DNA of 64,000 nt from Phoronis australis (Eukaryota > Animalia > Phoronida): positions 1 through 64,000 of the forward strand of contig NMRA01000580.1 of the NCBI GenBank assembly GCA_002633005.1. The letters run 5' to 3'. A model generated the notes under the pieces. It saw only the letters and a list, made by a program, of their open reading frames with translations. It was not told the origin of the DNA and did not search any database. The position numbers and the translations under genes were made by a program. Position 1 is the stretch's first letter. The number at the start of each line of letters is the position of its first letter. Below, piece by piece: positions 1 to 53,483 of the stretch.

Positions 1-160
1 TCATGTGACCCTGTTTTATATTGTAGGTGTGTTTCACCATGAGCGTCAACATAGCCAGTGTGCATGTCGACTCCCAATGGTCATGCGACCCTGTGTTATA
101 TTGTAGGTGTGTTTCACCATGAGCATTATTGTGGCCAGTGTACGTGTGGATGCCTACTCC
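1..160 (+). repeat. 80-bp tandem duplication spanning the Piezo 3' splice site
   Basis: 1-80 resembles 81-160 (tcatgYgaccctgtKttatattgtag|gtgtgtttcaccatgagc...gccagtgt). May continue upstream of the window. Confidence 0.9.
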
Positions 161-317
161 ATTGTCTATGTAATACTGTTGGGTATCGGCATGCTCTGCT
201 GGCGTGTCAGCCGTCGATGTCTCTCAATATGGTGGCCCGCTTATGTCATCCTACTTGCAGTTCTACTTCCTGTGCAATATGTATTGGCACTAGGAGCACC
301 ACCTGGATTTTGCTGGG
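107..317 (+). CDS. PIEZO: Piezo mechanosensitive channel, internal exon
   Basis: ttgtag| acceptor and |gtaagt donor. Translates VCFTMSIIVASVRVDAYSIVY...WWPAYVILLAVLLPVQYVLALGAPPGFCW, matching the Piezo segment WPxY...QY..CLG.PP.LC. Confidence 0.9.
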
Positions 318-1070
318 GTAAGTTATTTCAGTGCAGTTCTGTTTCATTACTAAATGCGACCCCATATTGATAATAGCCAGTTGTTCACAACTATTTCTCA
401 TTCTTTTTTATGAAAAAATTAGTTGCGCTCTATACATGGGATTTTTAATGTCCAAATTAAATGTTGGTATGAATGTTTTAATTTCACCAGCTCTCAATAT
501 TACATGTCATTGAATAATGGTATTGACGATTGTTTTGATGAGTATTTCAAACGTAGAAAGAGATGTAGTGAAATTTGTTGTCCTGTCATGAATTGATCTC
601 AGAACCTCTTGGTTGAAGTGTCTTTCCTTTACTTCTACACCGCAAACCTGTCGCTACAGTTTGAAGTCTTAAAAAGGCTTTATGTGATCCACTTCTTGAC
701 ACCACGCTAGTTTGTATATTTAACTGTAAGATAGTGAGCAATTGTTGGGTGTAAATGTGCACGAAGGCATGACAATTGCACCATCATGTGATCATTACAC
801 AAAACTATACTGTATATTCATCGATTTTTCATACTGTACGCAATAGCTCATGCGTGTGGAACGAGCAGGCACAAATCATGATCGCTATTATTGTTATGAT
901 TTGATTAAGGTCTAAAGATTGGTAAGTCTTCCGAAATTTTTAGCTTTCTTTAGTGTTTTGTTTTATGTTTGTTTAGAATGGTGACTGAACAATGAATGTG
1001 ATAAATGTGTTGTTCCAGACCAAATGCAGATGTCAGTCTGGCCTATTGTTGAACTTTTCCTTCTTTTCAG

Positions 1071-1166
1071 TTTATCCGTGGAGAGTGTCCATGTTTCCAG
1101 CCCAACTTCAGCAGTGGATGTTTTTACCTCCCCAAGAAGGTTCCCTCCCTGCCATGAAGTTACTTG
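1071..1166 (+). CDS. PIEZO: Piezo internal exon
   Basis: ttttcag| and |gtatga, phase 1-1. Translates YPWRVSMFPAQLQQWMFLPPQEGSLPAMKLL (Piezo YPW...WLYLP motif). Confidence 0.88.
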
Positions 1167-1346
1167 GTATGACACTGGTTTACAAACACCACTTTTAAAT
1201 TTTGGATATTATTTGACAGCCCACATGGTGCATGCCATTTGGTGAAGACAAAAACATTTATAATCTGTTGTATTTATAGAAATTGACGACTTAACATCGT
1301 TGTAGTTTCTTTTCTCGTTTACATTATTTTGTTCTATTTCCACCAG

Positions 1347-1512
1347 CTGATTTTTTTCAACTGCTGTTTGCTTGTCAACTATGGACCGTGTTCCGTCTGG
1401 AGAACAGTGCCAAGATGGCTGCCTACGGTGGTGGTAGTAATCAGCCAGTGATGCCTAAAGATGTTCGTGAATACACAGACATACCAGGAGAGGACTTCAT
1501 CGCTGAGAAAAG
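1347..1512 (+). CDS. PIEZO: Piezo internal exon
   Basis: caccag| and |gtattg, phase compatible with the previous exon. Translates DFFQLLFACQLWTVFRLEN...YGGGSN...DF (Piezo DF.LL....Q..VF..E motif). Confidence 0.88.
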
Positions 1513-1668
1513 GTATTGTGTATTGGACCGAAGAGTGTACTGGATGGAAATCACTGGGAATTGTTTAAAGGCGTTACTGGTCTTACAAGTTCACGCACAC
1601 AAACACGCTGGTATCTACCTATACTTATATTTCACAAACCAGTTGAAGTGTAGACTAAAGTGATCTAT

Positions 1669-4600
1669 TACGGTAAAGTCGCGTGATTTTCGGACACTGA
1701 AAATTAATTCCTATAGAAAAAATTCATTCTTGGACGAATCTCGCGAAACATCATTTCTGTGGTGTCCGAATTTGGTGGACTTCCAAATTTGGGTTTCTGC
1801 TAGTGTCCGAATTTCGTGGGTGTACATTATTTCGATGAGCGGTCGTAGCATCAACATTGCTGGCTCGGTCATTTGATAGCAGTATAATTGCAGGTAAATG
1901 AGACTCAAATGGTCTGAGCCATTAATTTTTGAAAATCTGGCTTTCCCAATAAGAAATGTGCGCCGTCGACGCACAAAGACCGTTCCCAACAAGTGTTGGT
2001 TCTTCTTTTCAAAGATGTGCTTTCTCAATATGAAATATTTGGCTTGCATTGCCGATGCTCAAAAACCGTTCTCGGCAAGTGACGGAATCTTTTCAAAACT
2101 GCGCTATCCCACTTGAAATATCGGGCTGCGTTGCGAAGAGTCTTCCTGGTGACAAATATGGGCTTTTCAATGAGTGGGTCTGGTTTGCGTTGTTGACGCA
2201 CATGAAACGTTANNNNNNNNNNNNNNNNNNNNNNNNNNNNNNNNNNNNNNNNNNNNNNNNNNNNNNNNNNNNNNNNNNNNNNNNNNNNNNNNNNNNNNNN
2301 NNNNNNNNNNNNNNNNNNNNNNNNNNNNNNNNNNNNNNNNNNNNNNNNNNNNNNNNNNNNNNNNNNNNNNNNNNNNNNNNNNNNNNNNNNNNNNNNNNNN
2401 NNNNNNNNNNNNNNNNNNNNNNNNNNNNNNNNNNNNNNNNNNNNNNNNNNNNNNNNNNNNNNNNNNNNNNNNNNNNNNNNNNNNNNNNNNNNNNNNNNNN
2501 NNNNNNNNNNNNNNNNNNNNNNNNNNNNNNNNNNNNNNNNNNNNNNNNNNNNNNNNNNNNNNNNNNNNNNNNNNNNNNNNNNNNNNNNNNNNNNNNNNNN
2601 NNNNNNNNNNNNNNNNNNNNNNNNNNNNNNNNNNNNNNNNNNNNNNNNNNNNNNNNNNNNNNNNNNNNNNNNNNNNNNNNNNNNNNNNNNNNNNNNNNNN
2701 NNNNNNNNNNNNNNNNNNNNNNNNNNNNNNNNNNNNNNNNNNNNNNNNNNNNNNNNNNNNNNNNNNNNNNNNNNNNNNNNNNNNNNNNNNNNNNNNNNNN
2801 NNNNNNNNNNNNNNNNNNNNNNNNNNNNNNNNNNNNNNNNNNNNNNNNNNNNNNNNNNNNNNNNNNNNNNNNNNNNNNNNNNNNNNNNNNNNNNNNNNNN
2901 NNNNNNNNNNNNNNNNNNNNNNNNNNNNNNNNNNNNNNNNNNNNNNNNNNNNNNNNNNNNNNNNNNNNNNNNNNNNNNNNNNNNNNNNNNNNNNNNNNNN
3001 NNNNNNNNNNNNNNNNNNNNNNNNNNNNNNNNNNNNNNNNNNNNNNNNNNNNNNNNNNNNNNNNNNNNNNNNNNNNNNNNNNNNNNNNNNNNNNNNNNNN
3101 NNNNNNNNNNNNNNNNNNNNNNNNNNNNNNNNNNNNNNNNNNNNNNNNNNNNNNNNNNNNNNNNNNNNNNNNNNNNNNNCCCCCCCCCTCGGCCTCCTGT
3201 TGCACACCAATGTCGATTTTGCGCCACTAATTCTAAGGGAGTCTACTAGGTGCAACCCCCTGCCAAGACCGTTGTTGCGCACTTTGATACAATAGGATAC
3301 TGGGCAGATCACGACTATTAGAAGAATCGACTAGTGACGACCTGAAAAGAAAAACGAAAGCACTCAATTTGGGACAGGTGAACTCATGAAGGACGTAAAC
3401 CAGGCAATTCAAGTACCATTCTACTATTTACATACTTAATTTTCTTTCTTAATGTATATTTAACCAGTTACAATTCATCTATGTCGACCGTTTTCATTTC
3501 ATTTCGTCATATATTTGCTACAGTTACGGAAAATAGTTCTTCCCACAGGTCTCTGCTGTTGGACATTACACACTTCTGCTAACATTTAAAGTATGAACAG
3601 TCGCGAGTTTACTGAAGTCTCATTATAAGTACAGAAATGTTGTTGCAGAATAACAGTGACTATCTGAAGACAGGAATACATAACAAAATAAAATATGGAA
3701 ACACCAAACAAAAATCAAAACAACACTTACCTGTTGCAATAACGCCTTAAATGCGAACGTACTGACCGACTTGCATGAACGGAATGTTAGTTGAACATGT
3801 TAGTAGAACAAAACTGTCTCAATGAAATTTTCATGGTTGACAGGTTTAAGAAGATCCACCGTAGATTTCCGTATATAAGTCCAGGAGAATATATGGCCAA
3901 TTTGCGTATCTTAAATTTTTCCCTAAAATATACCTGGGATGCATATCTGAGAATAAAAATGCATGCTTGAAATCTAAAAATAATGCTATTCCCACTAGGA
4001 TATAATTAGGGTGAGCTACAGTATTTATACTGTGTTCGTGTATTCGGCATTGCTGAGTATAGGCCCTGGTGTATTTTTACATAAGACGTTTGGTTTCCCC
4101 AACTTATATACGGAAATCGCTAGTAATACTTCCCAAAATTATTTACCCTTGCTGCAAGTAAGGCATCACCTCGGGTAAAAATAGAACAATAATAATTAGC
4201 AATGTAACAGTCAACACAATTAAACACACTTACAGCTGAAATGCCTCTAAAACTATATTAAGTAATACAAAAAACATGGTCTGTAGTTTAAGATCACGTT
4301 TCTTTTTTGTCTCAAAACTATCAACTGAAGGCGGTAACATAGACATGAAGACAAGGTCCTGTGGAAAGTAGATATGGAACTCCGGTCGGAAACACCTATC
4401 AGGTTCCAGGCCCGTTGCATCGGACTCCAGGTCCTGTATTCTTGTTAGCCTACCCCTAGGACCACAAGAAGCAACGACTACCAAATCTGATTCAACTGAC
4501 TTGTCATTTTTCGAAATGATTGGTGGAGGATTTTCTTAGTCGCCGCAGACAGAGAGTGCCACAGGGTCCCGGTGTCCTTGTCGGGATTCATCTTAATCTC

Positions 4601-5965
4601 GGGACACCATGGAGTTCAGGGTGTTGTACCTCAGACGGTACAGCTAGGATGTGAATTAACAAGACCACAAGTACACAGACCAGTGGATGAGCAAGCAAAA
4701 TTGGGTCGCCGCAAGTTAAATCTTTTTAGGTTTACATCTGGGGTTAAGCTCGTAACGCTAGAACTTCGCTAAAAAGCACGAATTCATGAAATTACGTGAT
4801 GTATTGTGTTTTTTAATTGAAAGCGTGATTTTGGCCTGATTTTTGTATTTCCCAAGACAGCTACTGAACTCTACCCTAGTCTGCGATCGGGGGCGCAAGG
4901 GTGAGAATCTCACGAACACGCTAGACTTAAGACGTCGAGACGTATGGTGAGGCCTTGCAAACGAAGCACACGATCACACTATCTTCTTTAGCGAGATTCT
5001 TGCATCTGCGATGCTTATCAGAGAGCAACAGACAATTTGTAAGGGTAGTGAAACGTGGTTACGTGGATGTACATTAGTTTTTGATATGTGTTGTAGCACA
5101 CCGGCACTTACACAACATAGGACAGGGATGCAATGTCTCTGTAACAATTGCGTGTGCGCCGCACCCCTTTCTGAGTGCTGGGCCTTGCCCTGTGTTTGAT
5201 TTTTAACCAGTTTTACTTTGGCTCCGTCTCATTCGGCTGCTGCTGTTCACTATCTACACTACTTTGAACGCGCGATATCCTACGGACATACTTAGCTGTG
5301 ACCTATTGTATATGGGGGCCTAAACAAAAAATATTTCTCATCACGTCAAGAATAAAATCCAGACACGTCGTCGGGAGATTTTAGCCACTAACAAGGGCAT
5401 TTGCAAAGGCCAGGACGTTTTAAAAATAAAAACGCTTCCTAAACACGCAAGTTGAGGCGTGCAAGTTCAATGTCACAGTCGGAAGTTGAACAACACGGTC
5501 TAATTAAACCAGAGCACATGTTACGCTACAACAAAAAACTGCAGCCTTCCGTGTATTTCCCATTTGTATTTTCATCAGAAATTTTCGTCATAGCTAAAGC
5601 GCCAAACTCAAGCTAAACGCAAGACAATCGAGTAACGATCATGACATCGTCAAGACAAGGTAAAAATTACAAAGCCCGTTACCCCAATTCTCAGATTCAA
5701 GCCTTATCGAGTAGTAATCATCCCTTGAACGCTTTAGTGACACGGGAGTTGCGTCGATCCTAAATTAGCGTTTCTAAAATTTTCCTTGTCCGAAAGTCGC
5801 GGGACAAAAATCCGACGTTTATGACATTGTCCGAAATTCGAGGATCGTTGAAAAACAGGTTTTGGACCTTGTACGAATTTCGTGGACCATGAAAAACTCA
5901 TTTCGGAAATATTTATTCTTGGTCGAAAATGGCGGGCCGTCCGAAAATCACGCGACTTTACCGTA
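1669..5965. mobile_element. TA-flanked TIR DNA transposon ends bracketing the assembly gap
   Basis: Perfect 27-bp inverted repeat tacggtaaagtcgcgtgattttcggac at 1669-1695 and 5939-5965, with subterminal gtccgaaWttcg-like motifs at both ends. Confidence 0.7.
2213..3179. other. Assembly gap (967 N)
   Basis: Run of N. Confidence 1.
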
Positions 5966-6458
5966 CTCGTTTTCAGAACATTACCCGTTGGATGAGGATT
6001 CATCAAAAAGTAGTTTTTTAAGATTTTCATGAAACAATTTATTGCAACCAGAAATGAAATTATGACTACAGCATTTTTGAGAGTTCATCTCGAACATTCA
6101 TATCCAAATGAATTTAGTCATGTTTTGCTGAATGTTGCTAAAAATGGTCACATGATCCAAATGAGGACAGATTGGTCAATAATCAGAAGTCAATCTGTAC
6201 ATGCTTTCTTCTTTTATAAAATATTATACTTTTAGGGACTTGAAATGTATCGTTTTGTAGATACTTGACTAATTAAACAGACTTGTAGATAAGGTCCTGC
6301 ATATTTGATAAATTTAGCATACAGATACTTATCAAATGCTGTAGAATTTTCGCTTTTGCAGTTTATTTTGTAAACGTTGTTCCTGGCCGACATTTTACGC
6401 AAGAGTGTACAAATTAAAGTAGCGTTAAAACCATGTCAACCTCTTCTTTTCTCTTCAG

Positions 6459-6569
6459 GCATCATCGTCATGTTCTTGTAGAATGGCTCCAAGATGGCAG
6501 CGCTGAGTTAGACTTTACTGAGAGTATACTGCGCGATGATGCAAAAAACTATCACGCCTGGCAACACAG
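6459..6569 (+). CDS. FNTA: Protein farnesyltransferase/geranylgeranyltransferase-I alpha subunit, internal exon
   Basis: [37 protein letters not shown] (PPTA repeat); AG/GT boundaries. Confidence 0.95.
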
Positions 6570-12290: not shown

Positions 12291-13559
12291 GACGTCTATC
12301 ACGCTGGTGTGCGTTCAGTGGCCGCTATGACCCAACATGGGACCTACTAGCCGCTAAAACCTAGTCCAAGTCACGTGTTTTTATTTAAAATACACGGCAA
12401 TATCTCATGTAATCTCGCGAAGTTTTGCTTTTTAGCGAGGTCCAAGCGTTACTGAACGGGAGGCATGTCTGTACAGCCTATGGTTGTTTCCGTTTCTGTT
12501 CCTTCAGATATAGGATTCTGTGGCTGTCTGATCGAAGTTCGTCGGCGAAGTGGGTTAACAGGTCACTGATTGACACTACCACCATCTGAACTGGGCCAAC
12601 GCAAAGGTCAACGATACTCCTCGCTGATAACAGAGCGATCTGTGTCGTTGAGAGGTAAGCGAAAAGAACAGATTCTTTCAAAATCGGCTTATAAACTCGC
12701 CTCCAGCACTTTCGCAGTAGAAATTGGTCGCGACTTGCAAGGAAGTCTAGGAGTATACCTAATTTGTGAATATGCTAAGCTTCCTGTGACTTAGGCAATG
12801 ACCATGCCTACCTGTGACTGTGTCGTGACAATACGTATACTCGGGAACCCAATGGTCGTCCGCCTAAGCATAAAACCGACTTGCTGTTGTACTCACCGAA
12901 TTATTCCACTTCAAAGTTATGATCTGAATAGGATTCGATTTAACTCTCACAGATATACCGCATTCATCGATTCGGAAGTTTTCTTTAATTTGTGCCGAGT
13001 TATTTCAAATGTGCACTGCCTTCGGCAGCCATTTTATTGTGACACCTAAGTTCGTCATATGCTGCCCCCTTTTGTAAAAACTGAGAAACATGCAGAAAAA
13101 GGCCAACGAAGTAATGAAAATTGCAACAGCCTGTTTTTATTGACATAAACTCGATTTGAAGCTTTGATGTTGAGCTCTGCACTGTGGTTTCCAATAAAAG
13201 CCAATTGGACAACATTTCAATGCAGTTTAATGGTGAATGCGTGAGGCAAAAATGTTAAGAACCCAGCGTATCGCATTTGTCTGCGGATTTTTCCTTTGGC
13301 CTTCTAGATCCTACTAGTGCCTGGGACAAACAGATACATTGCATAAACAAACCCTGGATCATGTTTTGTGTCCCGTCGGAAGAAAATTTAAATTCGAAAA
13401 CATCTTCTGAAAACGCACAAAAAAGTGTATTAGTAAAATCTACTGATTTTTAAGTGGTTTTAAAAAACAATCGGTAAACTCACCGATTTTTGTCTCATTA
13501 CTTTGATACGTGTCTCTTCCGATAAGTTAGTACCTAACGTGCACACGAGCACTCCAAAT

Positions 13560-13636
13560 TGGAACGCTAAGTCCCGCGTGGTTGCGCTGCACGCGAAACA
13601 AGATGGCGGACGACCTTTGGAGCCTGACGACAATAG
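13560..13636 (+). promoter_or_regulatory. Probable promoter and first (5' leader) exon of the aldo-keto reductase gene
   Basis: CpG-rich patch, caagatggcgg (YY1-like motif common near transcription starts), strong donor ag|gtaagc at 13636/13637. Confidence 0.55.
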
Positions 13637-16600
13637 GTAAGCGGACTATATTTATCGTGCTCTTGGACTTTTGGAGGCCTTGGAGGGGTCTAACAAGACT
13701 CTAACATCTGTGTCAGGAATGTTAAACTTTTAGTTTTTTGTGGAGTGAATGCGTAACTTGCTGTTTGTGCAGCAGATGGCTTTAATTTGCTGGTTGACGA
13801 TATATTACACAATAAAGATTAGTACAGTATCCTATCAAGCCACTATCAAAGGGCTGTCAAGAGTGTTTGTGCATGGTGTTTTGATTGTGCTATATGCTGA
13901 GAGTTGTGTCCATAGTCAGTGAATGTCACTTATTGTTCTCGTGCGGTCTTACCTTTACGCATAACTTAAATACACGCTGTAGAACAGAGGCCAGAGCGCC
14001 AAACGCAGACGTCCTGCATGCAGCGGGATAACACGAAGAGAGAGAGAGAGAGCAGTCCCATGATTCCCCAGTCACGTGACAATACTAGAACTCACAACAT
14101 CCAGCCACTGATGGAAACCCATGGACGAACATGAACACACGAGACAACATGAAAGACGAGACCACACAAACCAACATTCACAACAGTGCTCTGCGAACTT
14201 CTGCTTGTTACAAATGTGCCATATTTGTGCCTGGACATATACACACGTACCCCTCCCCCCACACATACCTTATTGTGCCTGCGTCTGCGATCGTTCCCTA
14301 TAGGACCATTTCTAGAAAATTGATCAATAATGTACTTCACAGAATTCTATCCAAAGTCCGAAGACAATGTTGCATCAATTATAACCAAAGGGATTTACAA
14401 GACAAGACAGATGGGTCCCTGATTTGAGAACCAGTTACTCCCACTGAATAATGTCTGTTATTCAGTAGTAGTCACACTGCTTGGTCAATCCGGGACTCTT
14501 TATCCAACTGTTGCACACACTCAGTGACAGTGGCACTAGTGGCAGGTCTGTTATGCTGGTGACCTGGCCAGATTACCTGGCCCATAATTAGGCAACTTCT
14601 ACGATAACATTTGGGGTTTTATTACCCAACGCCAAAGCGAGTTTAAATCAGTCTGACTAACCCGTCCTAATCGATTCACAAATCAGCGCGCGTGGCTTTG
14701 ATGTGCTGAGGAATTTGCTGGATACTCTGGGGTGTACACTGAGTGCATGCTTTTCCATCCACTTGCGTGCACATCCTGTTAGCGTAAGTGTTGCCTAAGG
14801 TCAGTTCAGAGAATGGTACTGCAAACTGGACATCATGCTTGGCACACGTAATTACATACCATGACAAGCCAACTCTAGCCTGATCCACAGCAATGACAAC
14901 CTTTCAGTTCTTCCCTAGGGATAAAGTAGACTAGTATAGGCCCTACTAGTATGTGGACCACCAACAGAGCCTCTGTATAGTCAATACAAAACCTGTAGTT
15001 TTGCGCTGGAACTGAGACCCCTTCGACATCATTATTTATTAGCGGCACTTGGTGTTAAGTACAGTGATAACCCTTGGACACTTGAGCAAGTTGAGTGAAA
15101 AGGTACTTGTGCCTTCTGATTGAGGTGGAAATTAATTCCCCCACCCCCAGCACTACTGCTTCTAACACTGAGGCTTTTAATCGTTTTTATGAACGCGAAG
15201 CACAGTCATTATGGTAGACTATAGACTATTATTGTGGACAAAAAAACATTTGGAATTAAACAAATTTCTACAGTTTCTAAGTAGTACGGAGTCCTGCGAT
15301 GGATCTTCTTAAAATTTGACAAGTATTTCACCTGGAACAAAGAGTACGCGGCAACAGAGTCGGACACAATTTGTGATTACGACATTAAGCGGCCATAAAC
15401 TATTATAGTGAACATCTGCATGTGCATACTGGCAAATTTTCAAAATCCATAAACCAATAATTTTCGTTGCAGCGGTATTCAGCTGTAAAAGTCGATATAG
15501 TATGGTGTTTGATTTTTAAAAACTGATGAACTGATAAACTAAAAGTCACAAACATTGGTCAGGTATTTAAAAGAAACAACTCTGCATATTGACATAAACT
15601 TGGACGCTGCTCATAATTAACAGTTATATCACATGGTTTATTCTTTTGGCTTACCAATAAACTACATCACGACAAAGAAAAGCAACACACAGTGACCAAA
15701 TTAGATGTCAACAGCTTTCAAGACGGCACTGGTTGCCCAGTCATGTTGAACTATTTTAGTGGAGGAGTAACACGTTAACGGAAAAATGTGATATTTGCAA
15801 GAATGTGCAATGGTAATCAGCTGGCTATGAAACATGTTAAGACTAACACCTGCTTCATAGTCAATGAGATGGTTCGTCCAATGGATTAGTTGGGTTGATG
15901 GATGAGAGCTGACTACCGAGTAGTTTCGCTGATGATCAAAATCTGCCAATTTTTGTAGTGGCTCTTCAAACTTAAAAATAAAATCAAACTATAGCAACCT
16001 GGCAAGGAAAAAAACAAAGTAGACTTCGATGAACACCCGTGTGAAACATTTAAAACCAACAGTTGTTTGGGAAATGACCCTTTGTCAAGATGAACCAAAA
16101 TTTGCAGTTTTAGTTATTTACGTAATATTTAAATTGTGCCAAACCTTAAATCATACTTTGGACATTTCAGGGTGTAACTCTGTGCAAATGCTTTCAGTGT
16201 AGCTGTAGAGAAAGTAGCCAGTAGTGCTAATGATTATAACCTTTCCGTTTCATTAGATGAATACAAAGAGCATGTTGAATAGGCATTATAAAAGTTGTCT
16301 GAGGGCAAAGGGAATCTTGGCAGTGATCAGTGTAATAGATAATTAAATTCTCCATGCGCCATGTCAAAGATTGAAGGGCACTTTTTTATTTTCAGACGGG
16401 TCAGGATCAAGTGAAGGCTGTGCCGCTTTATGACAATTTATTTTTTGCAGCGATCTCTCTATTTTGAAACATTTATGAAGAGTGACTTGTATGTTTGTAC
16501 TGGGGATGAGACCGCACCTATTAATGGTTCATCAAATCTGTCTAATGCTGTGCCCTCTGGTGGCAATTCTATGTCATGGCATTCAGCTGTTTCTCTCTAA

Positions 16601-17066: not shown

Positions 17067-17521
17067 GTAGGCCTAGTTACAAATACAGCCTCATCAGAAC
17101 TGTCTTTAACACAATGACAGGTTGTTGTCTTTCCAAACCAATTAATGTGAAGTTGTGTGACTAGTGATTTTGGTGTCACTTTTATAACATCATGGGGAAC
17201 ATGCAAGCATCGTTTCTGTGTGTGCATTCGGCTCATAATTACACACAATTATAGGTCAAAGAATGACTTAAAATGAAACATGGTGACAAATAATAAAAGA
17301 AGGTGCTCACATGTGTAGTTTAAAGTGATCCACTGAAATGCACAGGGATTGGATATATTGTTCTGTTTGTTTTTTGAACTTTGACAAGTTAGTGTCTCAA
17401 AATGTAGGATAAGTAGGCTATTACATGTCTTTGGCTGTTATTTAAGTACTGTATCTAATTCCCTTTGAGGAATTTGGAGGATTTATAACCCTCAGGACTA
17501 GGGCTCCTCAGATCTCTTTAA

Positions 17522-18200
17522 AGGCGAATGCCACCCGATTTAATTAGTCTTTTTTGCCTTCTTAATCGGTCTATTTCCACATCGCCCCTCATATGGTCAA
17601 CCTTACCTTGCCAAGAGGTGTCGCGCTAACCTGTGAGGAAGGTGAGAAACGACGCTAGTGACGTCAGTGGTTCATATGCAGAGTGAATGCCGCTGTGTTG
17701 CGGTGTATCGTTCTCGCTTTTCCGAAATAAGCAGCCGCGAGGAAAGCGAGTATATCAGTTTTTTTACTTCCTCGAGAGTCCGAAATGCTTAGGAAGTGGC
17801 TCATGATAGTGAAGAATGAAATGTACGCTGTAAATAGCAAGTATGAGGCCCTGAAACATCTCTGTGTCTGTGGCCTGCAGACGACGTCGACAGTGCCTCA
17901 CGAATGCCGGCTTACCAAATAACTCCATACGTTCCGTTGTCTGAGCTTGTTTACGGCGCCTCTCTAGTATTTCTTCATCACTGTATTCCTGTTCGAATTG
18001 ATAGCCTGTAAAACTTAACGATCCACCTGCGGAGTTGGGATTGATGAGCCGCTCTAGCTTGTCCTAAGTCAGGATTGCGAGTTGCCATGTTGGCGTTTAT
18101 TGCTGAGCATTCTGTTTCAAAATGAATTGTTCTCACCCTAACCAATACTAAAACTGAAACAAAGTCTGTCTCATTAAATGCAATTTGTAATGTCTTTGGA
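17522..18200 (+). mobile_element. Kolobok-like transposon remnant (left end plus decayed THAP-like start)
   Basis: ttaa|aggcgaatgccacccgat, homologous to the left end of the MITE at 62491. Contains MPLCCGVS...FFLLPRESEMLRKW. Right end not found, so the end coordinate is approximate. Confidence 0.55.
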
Positions 18201-18259
18201 GTGTTCGTGAGTGCACGAAATGATTTGAGAAGCCAGCAATGAATAAATCATTGCGTTAC

Positions 18260-18540
18260 CGACACTTGGTCAACAGATCTATTTTATTCCAGTGTCCAAC
18301 CATCGACACTTGGTCAAAAGATCTATTTAATTCCAGTGTCCAACCATCGACACTTGGTCAAAAGATCTATTTTATTCCAGTGTCCAACCATTGACACTTG
18401 GTCAAAAGATCTATTTTATTCCAGTGTCCAACCATCGACACTTGGTCCAACAGATGTATTTGATTCCAGTGTCCAACCATAGACACATAGTCCAACAGAT
18501 CCAGTATCCAAGCATCGACACATGGTCCAATAAATCTATG
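18260..18540. repeat. 44-bp minisatellite, about 6 copies
   Basis: Unit cgacacttggtcaaaagatctattttattccagtgtccaaccat, period 44. Confidence 0.95.
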
Positions 18541-21494: not shown

Positions 21495-21680
21495 GCTTAC
21501 AAAAACTCAGAAGTTGTGCTGGGGAAGGCCCTGGCTGGTCGAAGGCAGAATGCAGTGGTGGCTAGCAAGTTTGGTTATGGACCTGGAGATGTCAAGTCTG
21601 GTTATGGTCCTGAGGACATTGAGAGAGCACTAACCAGGACACTGCAGAACCTACAGACAGATTACCTGGACTTATATCAG
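21495..21680 (+). CDS. Aldo-keto reductase coding exon 3
   Basis: AYKNSEVVLGKAL...VVASKFG...LQTDYLDLYQ (catalytic Tyr and Lys). Confidence 0.95.
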
Positions 21681-21830
21681 GTATGTTGATGGGAGGCAGA
21701 ATTTGTGTTAATGGGCATTGTGGGCTGTGTAGAGACGGATTACCTCGACTTGTACCATGTGGGTTGGTGGTTGAGGTTGGCGGTGTTGAGACTGATTAGC
21801 TCAACGCGGACCATGTATTTTTATGGGTGA
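21654..21830 (+). repeat. Degenerate triplication of the exon-3 end plus 5' splice site
   Basis: agacagattacctggacttatatcag|gt (real), agacggattacctcgacttgtaccat|gt (~21733), agactgattagctcaacgcggaccat|gt (~21789). Confidence 0.75.
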
Positions 21831-23856: not shown

Positions 23857-23928
23857 GTAAGAATGATTCTTCAAGTTGGTTGTCTTGTAAAACTTTATAA
23901 CACATGTGGCATGGTGGCCAAAGCATAT

Positions 23929-24080
23929 GCACAGGGTGTGGCTCTATTGGTCTTTAGTCTTGGTGCACAGGGTGTTGCTCTATTGGTCTTTAGTCTTGGT
24001 GCACAGGGTGTGGCTCTATTGGTCTTTAGTCTTGGTGCACAGTGTGTGGCTCTATTGGTCTTTAGTCTTGGTGCACAGGG
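23929..24080. repeat. 36-bp minisatellite, about 4.2 copies
   Basis: Unit gcacagggtgtggctctattggtctttagtcttggt. Confidence 0.95.
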
Positions 24081-24983
24081 ACTGTCTGTGGATAGCTGGC
24101 CTACTGTCTCCGTGTGTTAGAGGGGTGGGATAAACCAGTTGAACCTTGTCTTTATCTCCATGTCCATCGCATGTGATCGGTAGTTTTAAAAAAGGTATTC
24201 ATATGTTTCTTAAAGAATCCTTCACTGATGCTAAGAATGTTGACTTGCATTGTGAAGTGCCCCCTAACTGAAACCTCCATTTTTACATGAAAAGCAACTT
24301 CACCTTTGGTCATCTGCTCTATCAAGGCACTGAAAAACACAGTCTGACAGTATGTTGTCTAGTAGTTGTTGATCAAAACCATTTATTGGTTGGATTATGC
24401 TATGTGGCATAGACACAGCCTCATTGTGTCAAGCACTAGAAGATTTCTCCCATGTTATGTTAAATACAATAAACAAGCAAATGAATATTTTGTCTTCCTG
24501 TTTTGGGGAAATTGAGCCTAACTGTTGTGATGTGCAGCAATGTAAACATCCTGGCATTACGGACACTTGTCAAAACAAGGCAAATGTTGCTTTGAGTCAT
24601 TTTAAAGGTGCACTTTGTCTGTTAACACTACGGTCACTCATCGCAACAATTTGAATTGTGATTTTTTGATCTTTATAAGTGCATATATTCACATACACTG
24701 TAGTCACCCATCAAAACAAGTTAGATGGTTGCGGTTTGGGGGACTTTATAGGTGCACCTCTCTGTGTACATTACATTCACATATCAAACAACATGAAGGT
24801 AAATTCTGGTTTGGGTCACTTTGAGTGCATGCGTAGGCTTACTCTGCAACTGTAAGTCACATTTTATAGTTTAACACTTTCAAATATGTTTGGTTTTAGT
24901 TTTGTTCTTGCTAGGAGGATTTTTGTTGTAAGTTTGAAGTCATGCTTTTATGTGAGGCTGTATTCTTCTCATCTTTTCTTCAG

Positions 24984-25145: not shown

Positions 25146-25686
25146 GTAATGGTCGCTGTTTTTCGGGTACTCACGCTTCTGTTGTATGCTTTAATATGGA
25201 CCCTTGTACGGTGTTGATATGTCAGGAATGAAAGTCAAATAAAATTAAATGAAACCCATTTGAATACACTCGAAAGATCCTTACGGAACTTGGCATAGAA
25301 ACTATCATGCTTCTTGCTAAGAATTCTATGCTGTATAAGCTGCACATGGTGTGTGCATATCTACACTCTGCATTGCTCTCGTCTAAAAACACCGTAAACC
25401 ACGGAATCTGAATCTTATTTGCAAAAATTATGTTGAAGCCTGCCAGACTTGCATCTAGAAGAACATTCATCATTACTTGATAGCAGACAGGACTTTGACT
25501 CACCAGTTAGAATGCAACCAACGCTTGTGAGAAACACCACCAGTCATTCATTCATTATCATTAGTCTAGATATTTCTATAATTCTATTTCACATTTTCCA
25601 TTTGTTGTCCCCTTTATCCACACGTGGTTCTATTTGGCTTAATGGAAAAGTAAAAAAATGCCTCTTTCTTAATATAGGCTCTGGAA

Positions 25687-26626
25687 CTCAGTCAGTGTTT
25701 GATGTGCTGCAGGATGTCCTGGCTGAGCTCAGTTAGTGTTCATTGTTTTAGATTGTCCTCGTTGAGCTCGGTCAGTTTTCATTATCTTGTAAGATATCCT
25801 AGCTGAGCTCAGTCAGTGTTCATTATGTTGTAAGATGTCCTTGTTAGATGAGTCAGTGTTCAGTACGGTGTAGGATGTCCTTGTTGACCTCAGTCAGTGT
25901 TCATTATGTTGTAGGTAGTCCTTGTTAGCTCAGTCAGTGTTCATCATGCTGTATGATGCCCTAAGTGGCTCAGTCAGTGTTTGTTGTGTTGTAGGATGTC
26001 CTTGTTGGCTCACTCAGTGTTCATTATGTTGTAGGATGCCCTCATGAGCTCAGTAAATGTTCAATATGTTGTGGAACGACCACGTTGAGCTCAGTCAGTG
26101 TTCATTATGTTTAGGATGTAGCTGTTGGATCATTCAGTGTTCATTATGTTGTAGGATGTCCTAGCTGAGCTCAATCAGTGTTGAACATGTTTTATGATGG
26201 CCCATTAGCTCAGTTATAGTTCATCGTGTAGGATGTCCCCGTTGAGCTCAGTAAGTGTTCAATGTGCTGTAGCATGCACTCTATAGCTCAGTCAGTGTTC
26301 AATATGCTGTAAGATGTCCTCATTGGTGCAGCCACTGTTTATTGTGTTGTAGGATGTCCTAGCTGAGCTCAGTCAGTTTTCGATGTTTTAGGATGTCCTC
26401 GTTAAATCAGTCAGTGTTCATTATGTTGTAGGATGTCCTCATTAGCTCAGTTAGTGTTCATTTTGTTGTAGAAAGTCCATGATAGCTCATGCAGTGTTCA
26501 TTTATGTTGTAGGATGTCCTTGTTAGCTCAGTCACTGTTTATTTGTGTTGTAGGATGTCCTTGTTAATAGCTCATTCAGTGTTCATTATGTTGTAGGATG
26601 TCCTTGCTGAGCTCAGTCAGTGTTCA
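25687..26626 (+). repeat. ~40-bp tandem array (~24 copies) made of the 3' splice site plus the start of the terminal exon
   Basis: Consensus ctcagtcagtgttcattatgttgtag|gatgtccttgYtgag; the last copy is the real junction at 26596/26597. Confidence 0.95.
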
Positions 26627-34299: not shown

Positions 34300-36048
34300 T
34301 CACAAATCACATTTTTTCAACCACTGTTGACACTTTCGCGAAGCTCTCTTCTTAGCTTCTTGTCTGTATTCGTATTCATCCTCACTGAATTCGTCTCCAC
34401 TCATCATTATGGGGTTGGCGAATCGACTGTCATAGCCCTGGGGAGTTATTTGAAAAGACTCTTCTCTACGCATGAATGAATCTCGACAGTGGTTATTTGT
34501 GACATTTTCGAACTTCATAAACGATAAACGCGATTCTTTACGCGTTCTTGTGGTAAACATTGCAGTTTCTGGAATACTGTCGTGTATCGCTTGAATTTTT
34601 GTTGACGAAATGGGTGGTATTGGTAATCGTGATCGTGTCGGCTGCTTCGGTAATATTGCTGCATCATTGTTTCTTGAACGCAGTCTAACGGGGCGCTTAA
34701 ATTTCTCGGAAGTATTCGATATGAATAGACCCTTAGTGCGATTGAGGACACTTTTATCGGATGCGTCGTCTTCCGACATAGAAGAGTTTATTTGAGTATT
34801 GCACTTGCAAAGAACGCTGTCTTTTTGAACATCTTTGTCGCTATCCAAAAACAGGCTTTCGCTGGCTTTATCGGATATTGAATTATTGTTATTCGAATCT
34901 TCGTTGTATTTATCCGTACATGACAAACTGTCATTGGCACTGAACGTTAAACCACCTTGAACCAAGTTTTCCTCGACACACGGGTTGTCATTCGGGCGAA
35001 TTTGAGGGAGGAGCGCCATCTCTTTACGTGTCTCGTCAAGTGCCAGTTTGGCTTCCTGAGACATTCTCGAAAACACTCTTACGTCGCTTTTACGCTGCCG
35101 TAATCGTGAGTTTTTCCTGATTTCTTTACGACCCCGACTGTCCTTCCTAGAGGTCTCATGTTCCTTATTATGGACATCCACGCGAGGCCCAAGCTGTCGC
35201 TTTACTCCGCTAGTTTCTGCCAAAGAAATCATTTTTCGTTTATTCAGAAGTCTGTTGGGCCTATCACATGCTTCACGTAGCGTTGAGAAATGTTTTCTAA
35301 GCTTGTCTTTGTTCGAGCTATCCGAATGTTTATCAACAACGTAATATTTGCTGTACAACTCCTGTCGCTGTTGAACCGAAATCAAAATTGACTGTTCGCA
35401 TCCAGCGTTAATCAATGGTTGTTCATAGATTTTATTGAACTTCTTTACATAAGGTTTATCCACTGGAAGAGTCTTGTGTGAAATCTTAAGCATCGATTCG
35501 TCATTGACACCCAGGATTAGCGGAGATTTACGACATGTATCACGATGTGAATTTTTTCCACCGGTCGATTTCTTGTACTCCGCACCATCTGGCCAAGAAC
35601 CTCTTCGAAGTGAGCGATACAGCTGTGGATAACATGTCCTGGAAACGTTTTTAAAATCTAATTCCTTCGGAGGACTGCTAACGTCGCGTTCCTCGGGGCG
35701 CTTACTTTTGTGCGCTGAGTATCTTGATTTTCCTGAGTCAATAACGTGTGTTTGTTTTTCTAGATCAGTGGCCTTACCGTTGACAGTCAAAGCCCAGTCT
35801 ATTGAGACGATATCACTCCCGGGAATATCACTACTGTGTTGACCAACCACGGGCCGCAAACGTTTGTCGGCTGCTGTCCTTAACAACGAACGATTATCAC
35901 CGTCCTCTGTCCAAGAGCGCGTCTTGTAAAAGTAGCAACATTCTGAGGGTTCCTCTCCGTCAACTGTGATTAAATCCAGACTGCGTGGCAGCTGGCCTGG
36001 GGCAGCCTCATCACCGACTGCAAGTTTTTGTTGACGAAGACTGGCCAT
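34300..36048 (-). CDS. Uncharacterised 582-aa protein, single coding exon, S/K/R-rich and probably disordered
   Basis: 1749-nt uninterrupted ATG-TGA ORF in AT-rich DNA; no recognisable enzyme or transposase motif. Confidence 0.8.
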   Translation of the reverse strand: MASLRQQKLAVGDEAAPGQLPRSLDLITVDGEEPSECCYFYKTRSWTEDGDNRSLLRTAADKRLRPVVGQHSSDIPGSDIVSIDWALTVNGKATDLEKQTHVIDSGKSRYSAHKSKRPEERDVSSPPKELDFKNVSRTCYPQLYRSLRRGSWPDGAEYKKSTGGKNSHRDTCRKSPLILGVNDESMLKISHKTLPVDKPYVKKFNKIYEQPLINAGCEQSILISVQQRQELYSKYYVVDKHSDSSNKDKLRKHFSTLREACDRPNRLLNKRKMISLAETSGVKRQLGPRVDVHNKEHETSRKDSRGRKEIRKNSRLRQRKSDVRVFSRMSQEAKLALDETRKEMALLPQIRPNDNPCVEENLVQGGLTFSANDSLSCTDKYNEDSNNNNSISDKASESLFLDSDKDVQKDSVLCKCNTQINSSMSEDDASDKSVLNRTKGLFISNTSEKFKRPVRLRSRNNDAAILPKQPTRSRLPIPPISSTKIQAIHDSIPETAMFTTRTRKESRLSFMKFENVTNNHCRDSFMRREESFQITPQGYDSRFANPIMMSGDEFSEDEYEYRQEAKKRASRKCQQWLKKCDL

Positions 36049-48979: not shown

Positions 48980-49022
48980 ATTGTTTATACAAGTTAACAT
49001 CATCAGTGGTGTCTCACCCAAT

Positions 49023-49154
49023 AACAGATTAATCAAACAGTAAACTAATGCCTTCCAAACAGGTCTAACAGATTAATCAAACAGTAAACTAATGCCTTCC
49101 AAACAGGTCTAACAGATTAATCAAACAGTAAACTAATGCCTTCCAAACAGGTCT
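49023..49154. repeat. Perfect 44-bp x3 tandem repeat in the probable CPVL 3' UTR
   Basis: aacagattaatcaaacagtaaactaatgccttccaaacaggtct x3. Confidence 0.95.
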
Positions 49155-49304
49155 GTAAAAGTATTCCGGCATAGTTTAGAACATGAGTATTGTGAACCAA
49201 AACAATCTCCAGTATACAGTCCCATCAAAATGATCGACAAATGAATGATTTGAGTTTCTACAGTTCTAAAATCCCTTGAATAATGTATATCTCAAATTAA
49301 TAGA

Positions 49305-49403: not shown

Positions 49404-49655
49404 CTGCAAATAAACATGTTCGACATTAAACCCTGAAAAATAAGATGGAACACAGCTCAGCCTATTCAATGGCAAGCAAGATGGTCTGCAACTCAGCACT
49501 TTAAAACAGTAACAGGAAATAACTATAAAGAATCAATAGTATAATGGTCTACAGAAATTCATGGCCAGTATATCTATAGCAATCAGAGTGCTTTCAATGA
49601 GTTCGCTTGATTGGTTTTACGGAGACACATTGCGATCTATTTTTTGTTATGATAC

Positions 49656-49838
49656 CTGGTAGAAGTTGTTCACTTGACGTGCATAACCAGCCACCTCTGT
49701 GTCTGACTGTTGTATCCTCCATATTGTTCTGTTGGCTGTCTGGTACTGTTGTTGACCCTTCCAAGGAATGGAGTCTATGAATGACTCGGTCAGGGGGTAT
49801 GCAATGATAATGTCCAACTGACCACTGTATATCATCAC
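49656..49838 (-). CDS. CPVL: CPVL coding exon 11
   Basis: VMIYSGQLDIIIAYPLTE...EVAGYARQVNNFYQ (catalytic Asp). Confidence 0.95.
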
Positions 49839-50075
49839 CTACAAAACATGTATATCATCACCAACCAAACAGTTATAACATGTATATCATCACCTACAAA
49901 ACATGTATATCATCACCTACCAAACAGTTATAATATGTATATCATCACCAACCAAACAGTTATAATATGTATATCATCACCTACAAAACATGTATATCAT
50001 CACCTACCAAACAGTTATAATATGTATATCATCACTTACCAAACATGTATATCATCACCCAACTAACAGTTATAA
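49826..50075 (-). repeat. 23/32-bp tandem array (9 copies) of the exon-11 3' splice junction
   Basis: Minus-strand unit (tataac)tgtttKgtag|gtgatgatataca; the terminal copy is the real junction. Confidence 0.95.
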
Positions 50076-50120
50076 AATTGTAGGTTTTCATGTGTATGAC
50101 TTGGAGGTAGTCAGAATTAC

Positions 50121-50297
50121 CTTATAACCAGCGTCCATGATAGTTGTGATCCAGGGTTTGGTGGAGTTCATTACATCATTGATAAGGGCAAGTTCCACTT
50201 TGTCGCCAGCGTTAAAGGTGAGATTACCCACATGGATGGAGCGCCGGATGTCAGATCGTGAAAAATACTTGTTGTATCGGTCAAATTCAGGAGGTTC
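50121..50297 (-). CDS. CPVL: CPVL coding exon 10 (copy B)
   Basis: EPPEFDRYNKY...IRRSIHVGNLTFN...KPWITTIMDAGYK. Confidence 0.9.
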
Positions 50298-50491
50298 CTA
50301 GTAAAAATGAATCAAATAAAGAAAGATGCACAAAAAGAAGTTATAAAAATTGATCATTCTTTTGAGATGAAAAAAGAAATCAGAGTGATTACGAGAATAA
50401 GAGAGGCAATAGCCAATCACAAGGGCTTGACACATGTAATTCAATGAAGAAAACTGGTTCTTAAAATGCAGGGCTCGTATTAGTGGCTATN

Positions 50492-50757
50492 ATGTATATC
50501 ATCACCTACCAAACAGTTATAATATGTATATCATCACCTACCAAACAGTTATAATATGTATATCATCACTTACCAAACATGTATATCATCACCTACCAAA
50601 CAGTTATAATATGTGTATTATCACCTACCAAACAGTTATAATATGTATATCATCACCTACCAAACAGTTATAATATGTATATCATCACCTACCAAACAGT
50701 TATATGTATATCATCACTTACCAAACATGTATATCATCACCCAACTAACAGTCATAA
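50492..50757 (-). repeat. Second version of the exon-11 junction array (probable other allele)
   Basis: Same units in a different order, starting right after the single N at 50491. Confidence 0.9.
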
Positions 50758-50802
50758 AATTGTAGGTTTTCATGTGTATGACTTGGAGGTAGTCAGAATT
50801 AC

Positions 50803-50979
50803 CTTATAACCAGCGTCCATGATAGTTGTGATCCAGGGTTTGGTGGAGTTCATTACATCATTGATAAGGGCAAGTTCCACTTTGTCGCCAGCGTTAAAGG
50901 TGAGATTACCCACATGGATGGAGCGCCGGATGTCAGATCGTGAAAAATACTTGTTGTATCGGTCAAATTCAGGGGGTTC
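50803..50979 (-). CDS. CPVL: CPVL coding exon 10 (copy A; one of the two copies is probably an assembly duplicate)
   Basis: Identical to 50121-50297 except one synonymous change (CCC/CCT); offset 682 bp. Confidence 0.8.
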
Positions 50980-51799
50980 CTAGTAAAAATGAATCAAATA
51001 AAGAAAGATGCACAAAAAGAAGTTATAAAAATTGATCATTCTTTTGAGATGAAAAAAGAAATCAGAGTGATTACGAGAATAAGAGAGGCAATAGCCAATC
51101 ACAAGGGCTTGACACATGTAATTCAATGAAGAAAACTGGTTCTTAAAATGCAGGGCTCGTATTAGTGGCTATAACCAAAATAATTAGTAACTTGTTATTT
51201 TCCACTTTTCAAAGGCTGATTACTTTACTGCAAATATTATGAAAAATCCTACACTCCCGACACTACAAACCAAGCTGGTAATAAACTGGAAAATTTTGAT
51301 AATCGTTCTTTTCGTGGAAAAATTTGTGAAAAAATCAAAAATCACTTGTTGGTCATTTTGTGTGCTAAACAAGTGAAAAATTAGCCTAGTTGATAAAAAA
51401 GGGAAAAGAGTTATTAAACAACTACCTTCACTGTACCAAGAGCATGTGCAGATTAAGTGCAATGTAGCTGGTTATCAAATATTTTTAAATTCAATTCTAA
51501 TGAGGCTAATACTGATACTTGCTAATTCTGATTCCACTTACAGTAATCCTTGATCTATTCAATTTAAATCGTTCTGAGTGATTCTGTTTGCACAATTAAC
51601 GCCACACTGGGAAATCCTGATTCTATTTGGAGCATGTTGAGCAACACACGTTACTTGGTTAATTCCAGTTGCAGTAGGGTGATTAAAAGGCAAAAATTGA
51701 ATGCCACAGTTTTCGATTCTAACTACAGAATAGTTCTTGCTACATTATATTCATAGTGAAGTTCAGTCATAGGAGCGTAGGTCTAGTGCTTTGACTTAC

Positions 51800-51895
51800 G
51801 GTTGTCAACAGGAAGTTGTAGTAGTTGCTGATGCCAGTGATGTTAGAGAAGTATGATGAAGAGGTCGTGTCACCATTCAGCAGACGATCAAAAGC
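51800..51895 (-). CDS. CPVL: CPVL coding exon 9
   Basis: AFDRLLNGDTTSSSYFSNITGISNYYNFLLTT. Confidence 0.95.
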
Positions 51896-52623
51896 CTGCA
51901 TGGGAGATAAGTCATGATACATTTCCATTGAATTGGTCAATGGTAATGCTTTTACGATTGAATAAAAACATTGTGACAATTATAATTATAAATTATAAAT
52001 TACACCTCTGTTATCGCATTAATATCGAAGATGCGATAAAAAACTCTGCAGTGATGTGAGAAAGCAATATTCACGTGACCCAATGTCAGATGCAGTTGTG
52101 CAAGATGAGCTAAGCTGGCAAAGGTGAAACATAACTTATTTCTTTCCCAAATATTTTCTGCACAACAGCATTAACTTGATGGAATGGTGGCAGTAAAGTA
52201 TTGAAAAAAAATGTGAAATTCTTAAACTTAAAAGTCAAAGAGAACTGAAGGTGGTTCCGAATTTTATTTGCAAAATACTTTCATTATTTCACAAGTTTGC
52301 CCAAAAAATAAATATTGGCAAGCTTATATGTTTTCCTGCCCTTTTATGTTTAATTAGTCTCAAATTTGGCAAAAATAACAATGGATAAGACAATAGGTCT
52401 CACAGCAGATTGGTCTAGGATTCAACAAACAGTTGCAAAAGTTGAGTGTTTGAGTGCACATAAATATACAACTCAAGGCTCAAGATATATCACACAATGT
52501 TACTTTTTTATATCAGAGTTGTCTTGCTGCAATGAGTAAGAAGAGTTATAGTCAAACTAACAAAAGAATCATCAGCAAATTCTAATATGACACAGAATGA
52601 CATCAGCCTTTACTTGTACATAC

Positions 52624-52752
52624 ATAGAAAGCTTGCGAGAAGTTTCCAGCTTGTATCAGCTTGACAATGTAAGCAGACTGGGTTCGAAACACTTCAGCTT
52701 GTGACTTTGTGACTAAACCAATTTGGTAAAGATAATCACCATAGTCCAGCAT
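52624..52752 (-). CDS. CPVL: CPVL coding exon 8
   Basis: MLDYGDYLYQIGLV...IQAGNFSQAFY. Confidence 0.93.
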
Positions 52753-52829
52753 CTGCAATAAGTAGAACATCAGAACTTTATTGATTCAGCATGCATGTGA
52801 GGTTGGCATACCTCTCCAAGGCAATACTT

Positions 52830-53483
52830 TTCAAATGGGACAGGCATGTACACTAAAAATCCATCACAAATAGCCATCTTCACAGTGACAGGATTTCAGA
52901 ATCCACAACCAATAACTAAATATAGCCACAGTGACAGGATCACACAATTTATACCCAGTAGCAATGTATATTTACAGTGACAGGATCTTACAATCCATCA
53001 CCAATACGCAATAGCCTTGTATACTCAAAGTGATGGGCTCACACACTCCATCATCAATGCAGCCACGTATACTCAAAGTGACGGGATCACACAATCCATC
53101 TCCAATAGCCATGTATATTGAGAGTAACAGGATCTCACAATCCATGACTAATAGTCATGTACATGTATAATCACAGCGACAGGATCATACAACACAACCC
53201 ATTAGCAATATTAAAGACATGTATACTCAGGATCTCACAATCCATCACCGACAGTCACGTATACTCACAGTGATCACACACTTCATCAACGATAGCAATG
53301 TATTCTCACAGAGACAGGAACACACAATCCATCATCCATAGCCATGTATAAGGCCATGACAGGATCAACAATCCATCATCCATATCCAGGTATGCTAAAA
53401 GTGATGGGATCTCACAATCCATCACAAATAGCCATTGTATACTCACAGTGACGGGATCACACAATCCATCACCAATAGCCATG
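52830..53483 (-). repeat. ~45-bp degenerate tandem array (~14 copies) of the exon-7 end plus 5' splice site
   Basis: Minus-strand unit catggctattggtgatggattgtgtgatcccgtcact|gtgagtata; the first copy is the real junction at 53447/53446. Confidence 0.92.

Follow-up and report, generated by a model that had tools for sequence, protein, structure and literature searches.

Junction-spanning arrays in three genes

The window, the whole stretch of DNA analysed here, comprises 64,000 nt of Phoronis australis contig NMRA01000580.1 and contains 55 hand-annotated splice junctions, 24 of which are confirmed by RNA joints (among the joints listed). Pfam matches were obtained for an FNTA-type PPTA repeat, an aldo-keto reductase and a peptidase S10, and the exon at 107-317 matches PIEZO2/1 (PDB match, E 5.5e-5), which underlies the Piezo label; the gene labels hold. 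CPVL proteins, in a list centred on a clam query, match the window at ~41-61%, and no group among them stands out as the nearest; an exon search yielded four hits at 45-63%. An earlier note on this DNA had described five tandem arrays whose units straddle splice junctions, and we found all five again. They lie in three genes and consist of 2-24 head-to-tail copies of units of 23-80 nt, each unit spanning its junction.

A1 (1-170, forward strand) is made of two 80-nt copies of the intron end and exon start at a Piezo acceptor. The copies are 84% alike, the decoy AG ends at 26 and the real AG at 106, and use of the decoy would shift the reading frame. This array is cut by the window edge, and further copies to the left are possible. 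A2 (21652-21826, forward strand) comprises an AKR donor at 21680 together with two copies that have decayed and carry decoy GTs after 21758 and 21814. Its three copies have spacings of 78 and 56, and the decoys match the real copy at 78% and 66%; the array was missed by TRF and picked up by an offset scan. At the AKR terminal acceptor, A3 (25668-26626, forward strand) has a ~40-nt unit of 11 intron and 29 exon bases and contains 23 decoys plus the real copy, whose acceptor ends at 26596. The AG is intact in 17 decoys, and the splice score of eight decoys equals or exceeds that of the real site.

Both CPVL arrays lie on the reverse strand. A4 (49826-50078), at the exon-11 acceptor, is built from 23/32-nt units of 11-20 intron and 12 exon bases; eight decoys, four of them with AG, accompany the real copy, whose AG ends at 49839. 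A second stretch of such units at 50492-50760 (reverse strand; nine copies, six with AG) is most likely the intron-distal part, or another allele, of A4. A5 (52826-53483) lies at the exon-7 donor (exon end 53447) and has a ~46-nt unit of 36 exon and 10 intron bases. It contains 13 decoys, six of which keep the GT, and the real copy, a weak donor with a score of 4.1 (ordinary donors 2.8-10.4). If the arrays were taken away, the introns of A4 and A5 would shrink to ~56 and ~83 nt, below all other introns listed in the window (minimum 138). Every intact decoy would, if used, lead to a stop or a frameshift.

The offset scan, which is blind to annotation, yielded 15 clusters compared to none in each of two block shuffles. 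Exactly 5 of the 55 junctions carry a local tandem copy (scores 37-81; next best 16), in agreement with the earlier count of about 5 in 53. The share of arrays at junctions, in contrast, had been put at roughly half, and our census gives 5 of 14. Over the window, 5 of 13 arrays are at junctions where 0.35-0.55 are expected (9-14 fold); inside genes, the figures are 5 of 8 and 0.56-0.9 (5.6-9 fold). A seed model gives P values of 7e-4 to 7e-6 for the junction excess, and 7e-3 without A1 and A2. Outside these arrays, 2.2-2.5% of intron positions lie in a local duplicate (per base), and at a rate of 2-3% the probability of 5 in 55 junctions is 0.005-0.024. All three arrays of at least nine units sit at junctions, compared to none of the eight other arrays (Fisher p 0.035, a comparison chosen after the data were seen). 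Five arrays straddle a junction, and the nearest other array begins 72 nt from a donor. For a greater age (p 0.11) or length (p 0.09) of junction arrays, rank tests gave trends that were not significant, and we retained neither idea. Apart from A4, the youngest clean arrays of the window (92-100% alike) lie away from junctions. The local junction excess is real inside this window, which was selected for the pattern, as an extreme.

Splice-site use and assembly support

RNA joints were examined at A2-A5, using 18-19% of the reads of three raw-read runs chosen by species label. The real joint was supported in the three runs by 44/44/86 reads at A2 (174 in total), 45/26/58 at A3 (129), 71/59/91 at A4 (221) and 39/21/66 at A5 (126). 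Beside the real joints of A4 and A5, the complete CPVL joint table contains no decoy joint. Among the AKR joints listed, which cover all but 127 minor rows, A3 is spliced only at its last copy, despite the 17 intact AG copies upstream. RNA depth is 0 over 26128-26578 of A3 in all three runs and low over its distal half (2.13/0.04/0.86). The exon-side copy is the splice site used at A2-A5 (in AKR, among the joints listed). At these four arrays RNA supports the earlier description of the functional copy as the one at the exon end, but this position carries no weight as evidence: since decoy use gives a stop or frameshift, it is a necessity in a working gene. Unspliced depth over the A5 intron was 2.6-2.8% in all three runs, where two stretches free of arrays gave 0-0.8%. 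For the A4 intron it reached 7.0% in one run compared to 0.3% and 0.1% in the others, so neutrality is not complete.

DNA reads came from run X1, possibly the assembly's own sample. A2 is bridged by an 874-nt DNA contig, and a 3289-nt contig spans A5 with one difference. Depth over A3 is 55-85 compared to 44-64 in its flanks, and the A4 unit pieces reach 93-302 compared to ~45 for single copy (2-7 times). Beside A4, CPVL exon 10 with its flanks appears a second time at 50020-50490 (reverse strand), identical to 50702-51172 except for two bases and followed by a single N at 50491. We rejected a real tandem duplication of this exon, since X1 depth on the second copy is zero (at 50144-50292) and the complete CPVL table has no RNA joint that leads from one copy to the other; the doubled exon is an assembly glitch. 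Because this glitch splits A4, the length and inner order of that array are unreliable. Its two assembled stretches have a different unit order, and the RNA of run X6 has different letters at five places in A4 (read without spanning long reads). Two X1 contigs at 24424-24876 differ in 33 letters and 11 gap letters in 442 and represent strongly differing intron alleles. In the AKR coding span, X1 depth exceeds 100 in 12 of 23 bins, likely owing to dispersed repeats.

Relation to mirages and human VNTRs

The arrays add new cases to a repeat type known from lancelets (mirages) and humans (junction-spanning VNTRs), and are likely not a new splicing system. In all five, a minisatellite-size unit holds intron and exon of one real border, which is one criterion for mirages and junction-spanning minisatellites. 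Variation in length among alleles also counts as a trait of this class. The Adh3 mirages were reportedly first described by Canestro et al. 2002. The portions of PMC3087553 and PMC3902484 available to us report amphioxus mirages in Adh3, the globins BflGb6 and BflGb9, troponin C and PGBD5, and portray them, like A1-A5, as minisatellite-like tandem copies of intron/exon boundaries on the donor or acceptor side; the earlier remark that no named system was known is contradicted by these mirages (PMC3087553) and by VNTRs such as that of F7 intron 7 (PMC1557585). According to the same portions, the unit sizes overlap (10-72 bp for Adh3 mirages, 23-80 nt here), many but not all copies carry AG or GT (30 of 47 decoys here), normal splicing is undisturbed, and assembly trouble at the array is common to both. 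Unlike the amphioxus mirages described there, five arrays occur here in three neighbouring genes. Moreover, A3 and A5 show star-like decay without concerted evolution, whereas BflGb6 units are 81-100% alike and homogenised within the cluster. In these portions, somatic instability is reported for Adh3 only among mirages, and the generating mechanism is called unclear (PMC3087553).

Human junction-spanning VNTRs occur in F7 intron 7 (37 bp), 6-16, CBS intron 13, LMNB2 and PDGF, according to the available part of PMC1557585. Their first unit covers the exon-intron border with donor pseudo-sites behind it, as at A2 and A5, and in F7, LMNB2 and PDGF the authentic, most upstream donor alone is used, again as at A2 and A5. 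The F7 pseudo-sites are identical in sequence, unlike the decayed ones of A2 and A5. In 6-16 and CBS, splicing also takes place at two pseudo-sites (PMC1557585), whereas no such joint is listed at A5. Three of our arrays are on the acceptor side, which the donor scanning rule of the human VNTRs does not cover. Closest to A1 is CBS c.844_845ins68, a two-copy repeat of intron end and exon start of which the downstream acceptor is used, as described in the part of PMC7490669 at hand. Its unit contains 52 intron bases compared to 26 in A1. In A3 and in the short unit of A4 the number is only 11, so that the branch point there would have to sit in the preceding exon-derived copy.

In the Rogers model of AGGT tandem duplication, splice signals are duplicated as well, but a new intron arises from exon sequence, whereas existing introns are lengthened here (available portions of PMC3265369 and PMC2812944). 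We compared CPVL with ten distant metagenome loci, which are matches of only 48-58%. The exon-11 intron position, the one junction compared for intron gain, is present without an array in nine of them, while the tenth has no intron there, and we rejected intron gain by AGGT duplication at this junction on these grounds. None of the three distant loci that reach the exon-7 donor has an array at it. A genome-wide enrichment test of mirages was not found in the literature searched, and the available portions of PMC2206037, PMC12783039 and PMC10078293 contain nothing on this repeat class.

Origin and persistence of the arrays

In A3 and A5, the functional copy takes the most central place among the units (rank 1 of 23 and 1 of 12), real-to-decoy identity being 0.80 and 0.78 compared to 0.71 and 0.64 between decoys. 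Higher-order periodicity was absent from A3 and A5 at lags 1-7, and the exon and intron parts of the decoys decay evenly (0.83/0.85 in A3, 0.83/0.78 in A5). Polar growth from the exon end was rejected, as there is no identity gradient (rho -0.07, -0.22, -0.03). Edges could be read in two arrays, A4 and A5, and both show ordinary 4-nt microhomologies.

We favour, with a probability of roughly 0.6, ordinary microhomology-type duplications that were tolerated and are likely to outlast repeats deeper in introns, with the exon-side copy spliced in the four arrays tested; the arrays are likely near-neutral. A stretch of 23-80 nt over an existing junction would have been duplicated by slippage or break repair, a mode suggested by the microhomologies, and expanded by slippage or unequal exchange. 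Most units of A3 and A5 seemingly stem from a single old burst, after which each decayed on its own. The spliceosome takes the copy attached to the intact exon, as shown for A2-A5, and at donors this agrees with the upstream-first rule. The junction excess may stem from slower loss, since deletions near the exon would mostly be harmful: collapse to one copy would involve the functional copy and bring decayed letters into the exon, while expansion would leave the functional copy intact. The choice of the window as an extreme would add to the excess. A toy deletion model with free parameters, built on the actual exon map, gives 2.7-6.5 times lower loss at up to 60 nt from a junction than in the interior of introns; slower loss beside exons and window choice could, in this model, give a similar excess. 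Against this reading, the observed excess reaches or surpasses the upper end of the toy model's range for introns, and slower deletion alone predicts arrays beside as well as across junctions, whereas all five straddle.

That straddling (5 arrays versus 0-1 merely adjoining), the large local excess, the strongly different intron alleles and the unclear mechanism of mirages would fit a process in which duplications arise more often across exon-intron borders. Strand invasion from the conserved exon might re-anneal out of register where intron allele similarity falls, or splicing-linked R-loops or breaks, as suggested earlier, might act at the border. Biased birth of this kind nevertheless appears improbable, as similarity shows no gradient from the exon end, the youngest clean arrays except A4 lie off junctions, and the array edges carry plain microhomology. 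More doubtful still is that junctions have no effect, the window being the tail among many in a repeat-rich genome with randomly placed arrays. The selection of the window, the duplicated intron background with its P of 0.005-0.024, and the deep AKR bins, owing to which a uniform null may assume too large a target, point in this direction; the seed-model P values, even without A1 and A2, and the position of all three long arrays at junctions point away from it.

Selection for decoys seems very unlikely, whether these were to recruit or titrate splicing factors, as had been suggested earlier, or to tune intron retention. The small rise in unspliced RNA over the A5 intron (three runs) and the A4 intron (one run) and the shortness of these introns without their arrays would suit it, but the weak A5 donor can explain retention, and the 30 decoys that keep AG or GT compare with 33.1 expected by drift (p 0.34; copies not fully independent). 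In addition, CPVL shows no decoy joint, exon and intron parts decay alike, the host genes are unrelated, and the orthologous acceptor carries an array in none of nine distant loci, which are too distant to weigh much. Least probable is that the arrays are assembly artefacts. A4 adjoins the false 471-nt duplication and the N, yet units of A1, A2, A3 and A5 differ from the real copy by 10-35%, a divergence that does not arise by mis-assembly; A2 and A5 are bridged by DNA contigs, and A4 has units at multi-copy depth and is covered by X6 RNA.

Taken one by one, the elements are ordinary members of a repeat class that has been described before. Arrays of this kind lead assemblers and gene predictors astray, as illustrated by the false exon copy beside A4, and A3 offers a natural acceptor-side test of splice-site choice. 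The dense case would make the question of birth rate versus survival testable for mirages at the scale of the genome. We regard as possible, though well short of probable, that borders in this lineage act as genuine hot spots or traps, with tandem duplications at them exceeding chance several-fold across the genome. It is equally tentative that they would become so through exon-started repair slipping where allele similarity ends, or through a ratchet by purifying selection on the functional copy. If true, this would provide the first general mechanism for mirages and a way for very short introns to grow longer.

Repeat arrays at exon-intron junctions

The window contains parts of Piezo, an FNTA-type gene, an aldo-keto reductase gene (AKR), and CPVL. 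We annotated 55 splice junctions by hand, of which 24 are confirmed by RNA joints; the set leaves out any further exons of a minus-strand 582-codon open frame (34300-36048) with many Ser, Arg, Lys, and Asn. By a junction-anchored score, just 5 of the 55 have a local copy nearby (scores 37-81; next best 16), precisely the five arrays listed in the earlier note: A1 at the Piezo acceptor (80-nt unit, 1..170), A2 at an AKR donor (21652..21826), A3 at the AKR terminal acceptor (~40-nt unit, 25668..26626), A4 at the CPVL exon-11 acceptor (23/32-nt units, 49826..50078), and A5 at the CPVL exon-7 donor (52826..53483). They hold 1, 2, 23, 8, and 13 decoys, respectively, that is, units with a copied splice border other than the real exon-side copy.

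An annotation-blind scan returned 15 clusters of local same-strand duplicates compared to none in each of two block shuffles; 14 arrays remain, since two clusters are halves of one. The enrichment count left out the in-frame exonic cluster at 21566-21612, a 27-nt duplication just upstream of A2 that repeats a 9-residue AKR motif, and collapsed every array to one seed. Junctions are straddled by 5 of 13 arrays versus 0.35-0.55 expected (P = 1e-4 to 7e-6). Within coding spans the count is 5 of 8 versus 0.56-0.9 (P = 7e-4 to 5e-5), and 3 of 6 versus 0.46 when A1 and A2 are removed (P = 7e-3); none of these P values allows for the window having been selected because of the pattern. The proposed junction excess thus holds inside the window, but less firmly per base, where local duplicates occur at 9% of junctions versus 2.2-2.5% of intron positions outside the five arrays (P = 0.005-0.024 at a 2-3% rate, under the same window choice). 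The only three arrays with at least nine units are all junction arrays, and none of the eight off-junction arrays is that long (p = 0.035 for a comparison made post hoc); by rank test, junction arrays did not differ significantly from the others in age or length. Two young off-junction arrays (23928-24080 and 49022-49154; units 36 and 44 nt, 96-100% alike) lie 72 nt from an AKR donor and downstream of the CPVL stop codon.

Assembly of the arrays

Mis-assembly cannot yield such arrays because their units are 10-35% diverged from one another, and contigs of 874 nt and 3289 nt (the latter with 1 difference) from the DNA run X1, possibly the assembly's own sample, span A2 and A5, respectively; an artefact is scarcely credible. 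X1 depth is 55-85 over A3 versus 44-64 in its flanks. Unit pieces of A4 reach 93-302 versus about 45, so A4 is real; it is badly assembled, though. Apart from 2 differences, the segment 50020-50490 is a further copy of 50702-51172, with a single N between them; the second CPVL exon copy has X1 depth 0, and no RNA joint between the two copies was found in three RNA runs.

Elsewhere, around a 967-N gap (2213-3179) in 1512-6459, Piezo ends after three internal exons on one side and FNTA begins mid-gene on the other; sequence is likely missing there, or the scaffold is misjoined. At 24424-24876, a pair of X1 contigs disagree at 33 letters and 11 gap letters over 442, so intron heterozygosity is high in this animal. 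Very high-copy dispersed repeats with sharp ends occupy 17518-18261 and 13509-13650, where summed X1 depth peaks at about 300,000, and a 44-nt array (18260-18539) starts at the end of one.

Splice-site use at the arrays

In 18-19% of each of the three RNA runs, reads across the real joint numbered 44/44/86 at A2, 45/26/58 at A3, 71/59/91 at A4 (counting the two exon copies together), and 39/21/66 at A5, which shows that the spliceosome uses the exon-side copy at A2-A5. The complete CPVL table held no decoy joints at a threshold of 3 reads in these runs, limiting use of any single decoy to about 2.6% at A4 and 4.5% at A5; for AKR, 15 joint rows were covered, with 127 further ones beyond, so minor decoy use there is possible. 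RNA depth over A3 was 0 in the exon-side half and 2.13/0.04/0.86 in the distal half, compared to 50/40/65 in the last-exon bin. By a matrix built from the window's 26 other acceptors, four A3 decoys score above the real acceptor and four equal it; sequence alone does not single out the real site. Splicing at any decoy whose AG or GT is intact introduces a stop codon or shifts the frame, and a working gene must therefore use the exon-side copy. The observation that the functional copy always sits at the exon end, while borne out at A2-A5, accordingly carries no evidential weight.

Unspliced depth was 2.6-2.8% in the A5 intron, whereas two stretches free of arrays gave 0-0.8%. In the A4 intron (CPVL intron 10; 49846-50120) it was about 7% (7.0%) in run X6 and 0.3% and 0.1% in the other two; the arrays possibly carry a small splicing cost. 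In the X6 reads, other letters restore AG at two A4 decoys (4/6 and 5/7 reads), which may reflect allele-linked retention or else reads from other array units.

Origin of the arrays

Of the 47 decoys, 30 retain the core AG/GT, where decay in the rest of the unit predicts 33.1 (p = 0.34), and there is therefore no sign of selection maintaining them; A4 alone keeps AG in 4 of 8 versus 6.8 (p = 0.02), its copies not being independent. Functional decoys under selection, as proposed earlier, are thus very unlikely. Copies farther from the exon show no drop in similarity. In A3 and A5 the most central unit is the functional copy, decoys differ by about 20% from it and by 29-36% from one another, and no lag structure was found, a pattern that fits a burst long ago, with the units decaying independently since. 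The A4 and A5 edges, read by eye, carry the 4-nt microhomologies TACA and CATG, and we found no evidence for the new splice-site-focused amplification system that the earlier note had envisaged. Most of the A4 (49839-50120) and A5 (52753-53446) introns is array; without it they would measure about 56 and 83 nt, whereas the shortest of the other listed introns in the window has 138 nt.

Nor is the class without a name: it is known as mirage (PMC3087553), and PMC1557585 describes donor-side cases in human F7, 6-16, CBS, LMNB2, and PDGF, with upstream-first donor choice in F7 constructs. CBS 844ins68 is a two-copy, acceptor-side case (PMC7490669). Intron gain by AGGT duplication (PMC3265369) differs in outcome: the suggested comparison of orthologous introns, covering distant loci, places the CPVL exon-11 intron position in 9 of 10 metagenome loci, all nine without an array. 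The literature searched, a scope excluding most subscription papers, yielded no genome-wide test of junction enrichment.

A raised birth rate of duplications at exon-intron borders could also produce the excess, but we consider this unlikely; chance alone, in favor of which stand the weaker per-base view and the choice of window, is improbable. We favor, at a probability of about 0.6, ordinary duplication and expansion. Duplicates would be born by microhomology, and their expansion would be tolerated since the exon-side copy gets used, the acceptor presumably being chosen by exon definition. Slower loss beside exons, together with window choice, would then account for the junction excess. A toy deletion model using the actual exon map, a feasibility demonstration only, gave 2.7-6.5 times lower loss for sequence no more than 60 nt from a junction than for intron interiors. 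The five arrays are genuine, lie unusually close together, and belong to a repeat class already known.
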